Source of the DNA: a virus | Lineage: Duplodnaviria; Caudoviricetes | Strand: one strand, 5' to 3' | DNA length: 64,000 nt | Virus record (IMG/VR): IMGVR_UViG_3300021400_001324 | Location: 13,830-77,829 of that record | Shown here: in pieces, positions 2,792 to 44,937 of the stretch | Numbering within the stretch: position 1 is the stretch's first letter | Layout of the letters: every line of letters starts with the position of its first letter | Translations under genes and position numbers: made by a program | Notes under the pieces: model-generated | Told to the model about the DNA's origin: nothing | The model's database searches: none | The model's input: the letters and a program-made list of their open reading frames with translations, nothing else

Positions 2792-3050
2792 GTGTAAAAT
2801 ATAATTTTTTTAATTCTGAAAATTCTATACTGTCCCAATGAATCTTTCGTAGTTCTTTACATATAAAATTAAGAAACTATTCTGCATTTCCATCAAATGC
2901 ACATTCATAAGGAATATCATTATGTCCAAAGCCTAACTATAATTTATAACCAGATTTAAGTTTAATTACTTTGATCATTCCAGTATATTCTTTTTCATAA
3001 ACGTTTTTAATAATATCCAAGACTGCTGATTCTAAGTCTTTCGTATCCAT
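2772..3050 (-). CDS. Conserved hypothetical protein between TerL and portal (2 TAG)
   Basis: MDTKDLESAVLDIIKNVYEKEYTG...; ends TAA; overlaps both neighbours. Confidence 0.65.
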
Positions 3051-5289
3051 AATATGAATCAACATCTATTATATTTGTGTCTATTGTAGCATTAACTTCA
3101 GTTGTGGGAGCTTTAGGAATTCTACCTTTATGAATAATTCCACGTTCATCTTTCCAATAACCAAAGTCCTCAAATTTATCTTGTTGTGAATCTATTTTTG
3201 GCTAAACAAACATTAATTCTTCATTAGCAAGAAATGCCATTTGCATAGCAGCTACAATATCGAATTTTCTTTTATTTTCATAAGAATATCTTGATAACTC
3301 ATCAAGGATTTCTTTAAACCAAATTTCACCACAATATTCGTCAATATAATCAGAGATCATATCGAGTCCGTGTGTAATTGTAGTTTCATTAGCTGGAGCA
3401 CCAAACTATCTACTTTTACCATTCTGTATATCAGATTGACAGGCTCTAGGTCTTCGCATTAAATAACGGTTTTCGCATTTTTTACTTCTAAAGAATTGAA
3501 GTAGAGATACACGAGTAGATTCAAGACAGGCTTTTGCATTATACCATTGTAATAATCTCAAACACATTATGTGTGCATCTCTAACTTTTTGTGGTCTATC
3601 TTTATAATAAGCTACAATTTGAGGAGGATGCATACCGTAAGCACGTCTAAGTATTACTACGCAGAAATCAGATGGGTCTTTATAACTAGCAGATGTATCT
3701 TCCTAACCTAAGTCGATACCGTCAATTCCACCAACATATAGATTAACTGGAACTTGTTTATCGTCATCTATTTTAGGGGCTTCTAATACATGAACTTTTC
3801 CACCTTGTTGTGGTACAAATTTTATACCTTCAATCATTTCATCAGTAACAATATTATCTTTAAATATGTATTCTAAAGTTCCATGCTAAATTGTAGGTAC
3901 ATCTTTACCATTCATAAGTATCCTAGCCATCTATTCTGCAATAAGTGCCTAGTCGAATTGGTTTTCACCTTCAAGAGCAAACGCTTCTTCTGCTGTAAAA
4001 CAGTGCTCAGCACATTCGCGTTTATACTCTTTTGGCATACTTAATAGATTATTTCGAGTTAAATTTCTAAACTTTTTAACTTCCTATCTATCAACTACAC
4101 CTCTATCATCAATAAATCGTATATATTTACCTTCTTCTGGTTCATATCCGTCTTTCAAAATAAAGTCAGCTGCGGATACAAAAAATCCTGATAATTTGTA
4201 TTCACCACTATCAAAATTATTATGTCTATATGGAAGGACATTGAATGCAACGGGATTATAAAACATATCTCTTAACTAATCCACTGATTTCATATCACCG
4301 CCTGTTCCAAAACACAATCTTGTACCTATTTTATTACCGCCGACTTCTACAAGAGCGTTACCTTTAATGTAAGTTTCTTTTAAAATAGGATTAGAACCAG
4401 CTTCTTCAAATATTAACAAATCTATACGATCACCACGAAGCTTACTAGACTAGTCTATGACCAATCCTTCTATATCAGAATTCCAAGAGTTTGGTAACTC
4501 TTCACGTTGTTTATTTATTTTCGATGCTTTTTTGTGAAAGGCCGTATTCATTTTCTAACGAACATGTCTCATACCGCCTTCTGTATCAGCATTTAAATAG
4601 TCTAACTATAACCAAGCTTTCTTTAATGAGTCAGATACGAATTTTTCTGTTGCTGCAATTACTACATTGTGAGTATTACGTCTAGTTGAATAATTATTAA
4701 CTAACAAGCTAGCTCCAATTTCCGAGAATCCTACGGCACGACTTTTAACGGCCAATACATCTCGTTTTAGTATTTGAGCCATCTCTATATAATGAAAATA
4801 TTCGTACTGCTTATCAACAAAAGCTGGAAATATTAAACCTCTACCCTACCCTGCTTTTTTAACATCAGTATCGGGTAGTCTATAATAATTTAAAAAGAAA
4901 TAGTGATCTCCAGTAATTCTATAACCATTAACGCTCATACCATTATTACATCGATCATATTCCTTTTTCCAAAAATCCATATAAGCTTTAGTACCTTGTG
5001 GGTATGAACAGTATTTACCTGTTTGTAATTTAACCTCTCTAGCTTCTGTAAACCACTCTGGTTTAAAATCTAAACCTTTAGTTTTAGTTAATGGTCTATA
5101 GCCAGTCAATTCATAAGACAAGTCAGAATCAAAATAATCAATTTTATCATTTAATTTAACATCCCAAGTTACTACATCTTTATTAAATAAAGATTCTCTT
5201 AAAGCTTGTATATTATTATCAAGTGCTTGCTACTAGAGTTTATCCTAATTTATTTTTAAAGTAGGATTCTATTTCTTTTTACGAGGCAT
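3007..5289 (-). CDS. terL: Terminase large subunit, 760 aa, TAG-recoded
   Basis: VKSRAVGFSEIG (Walker A-like), LRGDRIDLLIFEEAG (Walker B), GGIDGIDLG (nuclease); track ORFs 3406, 4084 and 4846 lie in this reading path and are joined only by TAG. Confidence 0.9.
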
Positions 5290-20969: not shown

Positions 20970-20980
20970 ATAAAAATTAG

Positions 20981-21275
20981 TCCTCCTCCTAGGATTCGAA
21001 CCTAGTCTGTCGGTTTTCGTACTACACTTGCTTTTATACAAGCCAACTAACGTGAGTTGTTGTAGTCTGGACTATTTCTTTATCCACATGGGATATTCCC
21101 TATATAGTCTCTACGCCATTTATCACAATCGTGAATTTAGTAAGCCGTCGCCAAAACTAAAGTCGCCTTTAGTGAGGTTTCCGTTTGTTAGGGGAATTAT
21201 TCGATATACATTGCTGTATAAAGCTCCATTTTACCTTTAAGAGACCGTCTTGCTAACCAATTACAACAGAGGAGA
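20981..21275 (-). tRNA. Amber-suppressor tRNA(CUA) interrupted by a group I intron between anticodon positions 35 and 36
   Basis: Acceptor TCTCCTC/GAGGAGG plus A73; D stem TTGT/GCAA; T arm CTAGG-TTCGAAT-CCTAG; removing 21018-21239 gives the 7-nt loop CT-CTA-AA. Confidence 0.85.
21018..21239 (-). ncRNA. Group I intron (222 nt, no ORF) in the suppressor tRNA anticodon
   Basis: 5' exon ends in U and intron ends in G; IGS GGAG pairs with CTCT with G.U at the splice site; P3 ATTCCC/GGGAAT; P7 GAGACTA/TAGTCC; P8 and P9 stems present; P4 pairing poor. Confidence 0.82.
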
Positions 21276-43742: not shown

Positions 43743-43813
43743 GGCCCTGTAGTTTAGAAGCAGAACGCAAGATTTTCATTCTTGAGAACACGGAGCGTTA
43801 CCGTGCTGGGCTA
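43743..43813 (+). tRNA. tRNA-Glu(UUC) with a non-canonical T loop
   Basis: GGCCCTG/CTGGGCT, CAAGA-TT-TTC-AT-TCTTG, CACGG-AGCGTTA-CCGTG. Confidence 0.75.
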
Positions 43814-44211: not shown

Positions 44212-44937
44212 GATCTCGTAGCTCAGCTGGTTTTTAGAGCACCACACTTTGATTTAAGAGTGCTATGGCGAGAAATCCCATAGTAGAATCACCCAAATTC
44301 GGTGAAAATCCTTTTCTGAATAAATGGCACATGATGCAAACTGGTTATACCTTAAGGAGTGCCAGCACTAACCAATAATGTGTAAGGACAATACCGAGCG
44401 AAAATAAGTTTAAATTTGTATGAATACATGTACGTAATACAAATGACCATTGCAACAGATAAGCACTAACAACAATGGGGGTAGTGCAACTTATAATCGT
44501 GTAGAGACTGAACGGGTGATACCTAAGTTGAAATTGATATCCATATTAAGCATTGATAGTGATGCTGCCTCGAAAGGGTGAAACAAAGTGCAAATCTTTG
44601 AATATGAATCTTGCAAGAATTTCAATATGGTAAAGAGACAGTGAGGTTTAACCTCCACTAACTAATGTTAGACTATAACAAATGCGATAGTATAGAGCTG
44701 TCACGGCTGTTCGGCTGATACAAACCGAATAATAAATGTGTAAAAGTTGATTTGTTTCAAACTATCGGTGATATCTTATTTGATTATAGTAATATTAGTT
44801 AGTGCCAGACCACAACAAATGACCCTACCCAATGGGTGAATGTCAGGGTGGGAAGGAACATTCTCAATCATTTGGCTATGGTAACATAGAGTGGTAGGTT
44901 AATGTGGGAGTCCTGGGTTCGAATCCCAGCGGGATCA
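44212..44937 (+). tRNA. tRNA-Lys(UUU) interrupted after U34 by a 649-nt group I intron
   Basis: GATCTCG/CGGGATC acceptor; CCACA-CT-T|TT-AA-TGTGG after removing 44250-44898; CTGGG-TTCGAAT-CCCAG. Confidence 0.9.
44250..44898 (+). ncRNA. Group I intron without an ORF; P7 interrupted by a nested insert
   Basis: IGS TTAA-GAGTG pairs both exons with G.U at the splice site; P3 ATCACCC/GGGTGAT; P4 TTCGGT/ACCGAG; R GTAGAGACTG; S AAAGAGACAGT|CC; terminal G. Confidence 0.87.

Follow-up and report, generated by a model that had tools for sequence, protein, structure and literature searches.

The gene for tRNA-Lys(UUU) at positions 44212–44937 of the 64-kb stretch of viral DNA analyzed here (the window) is split within its anticodon loop, which raises the question of what interrupts the gene and whether a tRNA can still be made from it. 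The window is AT-rich and lies within a 77.8-kb IMG/VR record (IMGVR_UViG_3300021400_001324) with an estimated completeness of about 44%, the source of which is an uncultured gut or rumen phage. A cluster of tRNA genes is found by ARAGORN and Rfam on the + strand between 35.6 and 51.1 kb of the window. AAA is the top codon of this phage (57 per 1000 codons vs 18 for AAG), and the 78-kb record contains no second tRNA-Lys gene besides the split tRNA-Lys(UUU), so the phage has an ordinary reason for carrying a tRNA-Lys. An apparent second tRNA-Lys using positions 43743–43775 was rejected as an artefact; the gene there is a tRNA-Glu(UUC) (43743–43813) with an atypical T loop, AGCGUUA, which scores 45.8 bits in Rfam and is missed by ARAGORN. 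The ORFs neighboring the split gene belong to no informative family and are uncharacterized.

In terms of the exons, exon 1 (44212–44249, + strand) comprises the 5′ strand of the acceptor stem, the D arm with an unusually long D loop of 12 nt, the 5′ strand of the anticodon stem, and C32, U33, and U34, and its 3′ end reads CCACA CUU; the same exon is present in loci L004 and L054. Exon 2 (44899–44937, + strand) opens with UUAA UGUGG and supplies U35, U36, A37, and A38, the 3′ strand of the anticodon stem, the variable loop, the T arm, the 3′ strand of the acceptor stem, and the discriminator A, with CCA not encoded. The intervening 649 nt (44250–44898, + strand) end in GGUAGG, the last base of which, G44898, is the ωG. 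Every plausible junction pair was joined in silico, and each product was run through ARAGORN. A tRNA-Lys(ttt) was returned only for the join 44249/44899 or for a one-base-shifted equivalent without the terminal G, and the join 44249/44899 alone has its 5′ site preceded by U and its 3′ site preceded by G while also giving a seven-nucleotide loop, CUUUUAA. The uninterrupted tRNA-Lys(UUU) genes of nine other viral contigs agree exactly with the predicted ligated junction in their anticodon arm and variable loop. The split gene is missed by ARAGORN, by ARAGORN with its intron option, and by Rfam at the gathering score; megablast and blastn searches against cultured phages matched only the neighboring tRNA-Leu, and an exact 29-mer of exon 1 has no other match in IMG/VR.

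The splice sites are specified by an internal guide at 44254–44262 (+ strand), made up of UUAA (P10) and GAGUG (P1), whose sequence changes in step with the target site in the family of related introns described below. GAGUG (44258–44262) pairs with C30–U34, placing a U34·G44258 wobble at the splice site, and UUAA (44254–44257) pairs with exon 2 over its initial four bases (44899–44902). The complementarity between guide and exons thus extends over 9/9 positions, for which the chance is about 4e-6 at a fixed place, in agreement with the initial annotation, which had read TTAA-GAGTG as an internal guide sequence pairing exactly with both exons and had placed the splice after U34. Its description of the intron as 649 nt without a homing-endonuclease ORF also stands, as stops occur throughout all six frames and the longest sense ORF is 43 aa.

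The Rfam Intron_gpI model (RF00028) aligns P1, P2, P3, P4, P5, P6, P3′, and P8 of the window intron in the correct order, at a score of 25.5 bits (local E of 3e-4; gathering score of 50). The gathering score is reached neither by the window copy nor by any of eight relatives, and the best-scoring relative, a compact bacterial intron, has 39.3 bits (E of 6.5e-7). Williams 2020 describes the Rfam model as having no bacterial seeds and uses cut-offs of 18–20 bits.

The secondary structure was assessed independently in an alignment of 26 mapped family introns (A1), in which 73 pairs of helices P1–P10 were considered. Of the cells in this alignment, 92.6% are paired, compared with 38.7–42.5% in slid controls, and 0 of 500 shuffles are as good. 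Changes on both sides are observed for 38 of the 73 pairs, including all six pairs of P2 and all six of P9a. A U·G pair is found at the 5′ splice site in 26/26 introns, the two adjoining P1 pairs covary with the target, and the first P10 pair is UA, GC, AU, CG, or UG depending on the tRNA. P7 also covaries (GACUG/CAGUC, GAGCA/UGCUC, GGCCA/UGGUC, GAAUA/UAUUC, and GACUA/UAGUC), with its two outer G–C pairs, including the pair corresponding to the guanosine-binding site, kept in 25/26 introns. The family therefore has a U·G-closed P1, an ωG with P10, and a core of P4–P6 and P3–P7–P8 with the P3/P7 pseudoknot, and its assignment to group I is, at the level of sequence comparison, established. Together with the recovery of a tRNA-Lys(ttt) from the joined exons, this covariation bears out the initial annotation of a tRNA-Lys(UUU) with a group I intron at the wobble position.

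In the window copy, the guide is followed by the P2 hairpin, CUAUGG/CCAUAG (44263–44283, + strand as for all elements of the intron), in which 6/6 pairs show double changes and 99.4% of cells are paired across the family. The following segment (44288–44408) contains the 5′ strand of P3 (44288–44294), P4 (44298–44303 with 44393–44398), P5 (44309–44313 with 44384–44388), which carries a variable insert, and the start of P6. P6 is continued by a variable extension (44409–44489) that is 92% identical to the same module of the intron at locus L039, an example of the variable modules that introns of different tRNAs have in common. The 3′ strand of P6, J6/7, the 5′ strand of P7 (G-A-GACUG, 44503–44510), and the 3′ strand of P3 (GGGUGAU, 44514–44520) occupy 44490–44520, a region backed by covariation whose P7–P3′ 23-mer recurs exactly in five other IMG/VR contigs. 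P8 (44521–44535 with 44618–44631) and its variable insert, J8/7 (AAAGAGA, 44632–44638), and CAGU (44639–44642), with which the 3′ strand of P7 begins, make up 44521–44642. After an insertion of 162 nt, the intron closes with the remainder of the P7 3′ strand, CC (44805–44806), the P9 domain, and the ωG (44805–44898 in all); the P9 domain consists of P9 (ACCAC/GUGGU), P9a (CAAAUG/CAUUUG) with a variable cap, and P9b (CUAUG-GUAA-CAUAG), which is capped by the GUAA loop.

The 162-nt insertion (44643–44804) lies inside the 3′ strand of P7, which thus reads CAGU, 162 nt, CC-AGACCAC, and the break adjoins the invariant guanosine-binding G–C pair. Among the approximately 49 family copies inspected, this strand is interrupted only in the window copy; elsewhere J8/7–P7′ runs into CC-AGAC. 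The insert matches, as a degenerate copy, the 3′-terminal 179 nt of the L004-type intron with 88.6% identity (140/158 aligned positions); a 12-nt piece containing J8/7 and P7′ is missing from it, as is the ωG end. This match indicates that the insert is a scar of recombination and represents an incomplete second 3′ end; its identification as a nested intron or a MITE was rejected on the basis of the same match and the lack of any match to a ribozyme. No other match to the junction of this remnant was found, and the allele carrying it was seen in one metagenomic assembly only.

The interruption of P7 bears on whether the tRNA-Lys gene is simply dead. The remnant is predicted to fold into a hairpin (44643–44655) and a long stem-loop closed by 14 bp (44656–44669 with 44791–44804), flush with the ends of the insert (ΔG of −47 kcal/mol, z of −3.65). 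With the remnant closed in this manner, CAGU and CC could still meet, and P7 could form across the insert. On the assumption that the starting sequence was identical to L004, the remnant has changed mainly in its framing motifs, which are conserved in working introns (12/47 positions, compared with 4/88 in the inner variable part; Fisher p = 6e-4). In the downstream P9 domain, which is the one in use, the framing motifs are unchanged. This pattern is read as the result of selection that, after the rearrangement, would have silenced the competing 3′ splice site and tucked the remnant away, and selection of this kind would imply that the intron went on splicing.

The window intron belongs to a family that is widespread in phage tRNA genes. 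A 20-mer of J8/7–P7′ is found at 15 loci, and the 3′-terminal 22-mer is found in 51 copies at 46 phage loci, window copy included. Insertion sites after U34 are observed in tRNA-Leu(UAA), tRNA-Arg(UCU), tRNA-Lys(UUU), and tRNA-Ser(UGA), and sites after base 36 in tRNA-Arg(UCU) and tRNA-Met/Ile(CAU), while further members reside in odd UCA tRNAs, in suppressor tRNAs, and in a few non-tRNA places. Closely related introns are found at three positions (34/35, 35/36, and 36/37) of at least six tRNA species with matching changes in the guide: CUU before the splice site is accompanied by GAG, CAU by GUG, and UCU by GGA, and the nucleotide preceding the guide corresponds to the opening base of exon 2 (U35 with A in Lys, A35 with U in Leu, C35 with G in Arg, and G35 with C or U in Ser). 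The predominant hosts are tRNA-Leu(UAA) and tRNA-Arg(UCU), not tRNA-Lys; the tRNA-Lys intron is also present in the close relative L004 and in the more distant L054, the only new contig added by a metagenome search. The phage's own tRNA-Leu(UAA), tRNA-Arg(UCU), and tRNA-Ser(UGA) genes in the window are found uninterrupted by ARAGORN, i.e., they are empty sites.

Two longer family introns in tRNA-Leu(UAA) contain ORFs for HNH endonucleases (L040:6887–7372 and L021:831–1370), the second of which encodes a protein that matches HNH_3 at 28.2 bits (cut-off of 24.8) in a frame that needs TGA to be read as Trp. The sporadic presence of the intron alongside empty sites, the change of the guide with its target, and the HNH genes of some members together mark the intron, most plausibly, as a selfish mobile element. 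Its spread would involve homing by the endonuclease of ORF-bearing relatives, recombination between introns, and retargeting of the guide.

Compact relatives are also present in the tRNA-Leu(UAA) genes of Ruminococcus/Ruminococcaceae MAGs (L055, L056, L057, L059, and L061), which encode CCA and look chromosomal; their introns measure 228–242 nt in L056 and L057. These Ruminococcaceae introns have the 22-nt 3′ motif and the CCAGAC motif in common with the family, and it is by this kinship and by its site at 34/35 that the window copy falls among the bacterial introns of tRNA anticodon loops. The MAG relatives suggest both a host group and an exchange of introns between host and phage, the likely phage hosts being Ruminococcaceae. 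The lineage would then live in the tRNA anticodon loops of gut and rumen phages and in the tRNA-Leu(UAA) of these likely hosts.

Several other arrangements were observed in the family. At L026:5187–5840, a family intron lacking exon 1 begins 29 nt after an intact tRNA-Lys(UUU) gene, and beyond this intron comes an orphan exon 2 of tRNA-Lys. A family intron at L005:1–300 contains a tandem duplication of its P7–P3′–P8 segment and has no obvious tRNA half in its 3′ flank, and four members (L049, L018, L024, and L050; A1 columns 503–558) have P3′ and P8 separated by a conserved insert of about 56 nt. Copies of the 3′ motif with a non-tRNA downstream flank occur in L027/L048, L036, L038, L043/L044, L042:333–354, and L034; such copies could be remnants or could reside in protein-coding genes. 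On L045, a contig of another phage, a ROOL RNA (2936–3535, 304.7 bits) and a sub-threshold twister-P1 match (1106–1174) are located close to the tRNA cluster.

A second intron-split tRNA is present in the window itself, at 20980–21275 on the − strand, with exon 1 at 21275–21240, the intron at 21239–21018, and exon 2 at 21017–20980. Its intron is a compact member of the same family, 222 nt in length, with the splice after U35 and a P1 of CUCU/GGAG, and its exons join to give a 74-nt tRNA with the anticodon CUA, an amber suppressor, which is missed by both ARAGORN and Rfam. When TAG is read as sense in window positions 1–32000, the − strand ORFs of at least 150 aa increase in total from 3472 to 10666 aa, with the longest at 1160 aa; the ORF content of the + strand half is hardly altered by the same treatment. 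The late genes of the phage are apparently TAG-recoded. As the second family intron splits an amber-suppressor tRNA that a TAG-recoded phage apparently needs, splicing by the family appears to work in this phage. Inventories of phage tRNAs and predictions of genetic codes are incomplete as a consequence of the failure of standard finders to detect the split tRNA-Lys and the amber-suppressor tRNA.

Taken as a whole, the locus is probably best explained as a tRNA-Lys(UUU) gene split by an ORF-less group I intron of a mobile lineage. By the established chemistry of group I introns, C30–U34 of the anticodon loop would pair with the guide GAGUG to form P1, and a free guanosine held at the P7 G–C pair would attack after U34. 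UUAA and the start of exon 2 would then form P10, G44898 would take the place of the free guanosine, and ligation of the exons would yield a normal tRNA-Lys(UUU) reading AAA; the intron would be tolerated because of this splicing. That the window copy in particular still splices, with a 162-nt helix in its guanosine-binding strand, is a narrower claim, to which we give slightly better than an even chance.

The principal competing explanation is that the remnant splits P7, that the ribozyme is inactive, and that what is left is a still undecayed tRNA-Lys pseudogene. In all other copies examined P7′ is unbroken, its two G–C pairs are kept in 25 of the 26 aligned introns, and the interrupted allele has been seen only once; moreover, the uninterrupted form carried by L004 and L054 indicates that the event is perhaps too recent for decay to be visible. 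Weighing against a dead gene, all other core elements, both exons, and the P9 domain in use are intact, and within the remnant it is mainly the elements liable to compete with the genuine 3′ splice site that have accumulated substitutions (p = 6e-4). The closed hairpin flush with P7 is what would be expected from selection for continued splicing, and a phage in which AAA is the top codon has no other tRNA-Lys gene in 78 kb. We regard the loss of the gene as a serious possibility that falls short of an even chance. A chimera of two intron variants, assembled from the remnant and a second P9 domain where the true allele is an ordinary uninterrupted intron, is improbable. The many near-identical core segments of the family can mislead assemblers, and the allele is a singleton, but the 18 substitutions and the indels that set the remnant apart from every variant found would not be expected of an assembler, and the joints lie outside long shared repeats.

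A further explanation concerns the reason for which the intron is kept. Arrays of tRNA genes in phages counter tRNA-targeting defenses, and the intron disrupts the anticodon loop precisely where nucleases such as PrrC and PARIS AriB act. The initial annotation had accordingly proposed that the precursor is a nuclease-resistant reservoir or that the release of tRNA-Lys is conditional, i.e., that the intron is kept since the unspliced precursor escapes cleavage and provides a protected reserve or a gated supply. Nothing that was found supports this proposal. The family is not enriched in tRNA-Lys, as tRNA-Leu(UAA) and tRNA-Arg(UCU) dominate; its distribution among relatives is sporadic, with empty sites in other tRNA genes of this phage and in the tRNA-Lys genes of other phages; and the HNH genes of some members mark a homing element. 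The mature loop is the canonical CUUUUAA, cleavable like that of any tRNA-Lys, and constitutive splicing would leave no reserve. No regulatory element was found, and no match to RtcB or RNA_ligase was found in the 78-kb record, the missing repair enzymes being weak evidence because the record is only about 44% complete. We therefore consider it very improbable that the intron is maintained for the protection of its precursor, and we would equally assign little likelihood to a ribozyme counter-defense in which splicing of an uncuttable precursor pool frees fresh tRNA-Lys during infection. A selfish intron, tolerated because it would splice, remains the preferred reading.

The kind of element described here, a group I intron in a tRNA anticodon loop, is already known, whereas the setting and the promiscuous family in phage tRNAs are apparently unpublished. 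Our literature search found no report of a tRNA-Lys with a group I intron or of group I introns in phage tRNA genes. The classical group I introns of phages (T4 td, nrdB, and sunY; SPO1; Twort; and Bastillevirinae, PMC11878797) are self-splicing introns of phage genomes that often carry HNH or GIY-YIG endonucleases, but they are found in protein-coding genes, whereas the window intron is in a tRNA gene. Hausner et al. 2014 (PMC3984707) noted that all phage introns then known were in protein genes despite the many tRNA genes of phages, and the dozens of copies in phage tRNA genes extend this picture and tie phage introns to the tRNA-Leu introns of bacteria. The introns reported in Lak megaphage tRNAs by Devoto et al. 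2019 (PMC6784885), where they were called enigmatic and the first in phage tRNAs, are similar in interrupting the tRNA genes of gut phages whose stop codons are recoded; the Lak inserts were given no group I classification, whereas the group I core of the present family is backed by covariation. With three sites in at least six tRNA species, the family also constitutes a natural data set for the unsettled matter of whether new sites are reached by reverse splicing or by relaxed endonuclease specificity, and the interrupted P7 provides a test case for the tolerance of the guanosine-binding helix to insertion.

Among bacterial introns, for which Williams 2020 distinguishes 21 tRNA/site classes in bacterial genomes (the word “phage” does not appear in that text), the window copy most readily compares with two groups. 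The known tRNA-Leu(UAA) introns share with it a site after U34, a CUU/GAG P1 with U·G, an ωG, and independence from an ORF, and family members in phages and Ruminococcaceae MAGs occupy tRNA-Leu(UAA) itself. Those introns are about 230–250 nt long, whereas the window copy reaches 649 nt through large inserts in P5, P6, P8, and P9, resides in a phage tRNA-Lys(UUU), and has a P7 3′ strand broken by a 162-nt remnant. The IC3 introns of Azoarcus tRNA-Ile(CAU) and Agrobacterium tRNA-Arg(CCU) (“Ile2.5Ug” and “Arg.5Ug”) are also anticodon-loop group I introns with a very short P1, and their site after base 36 is used by relatives of the window intron with CAU/GUG or UCU/GGA. In contrast to these, the window copy is a phage-borne intron of three times the size, inserted after base 34.
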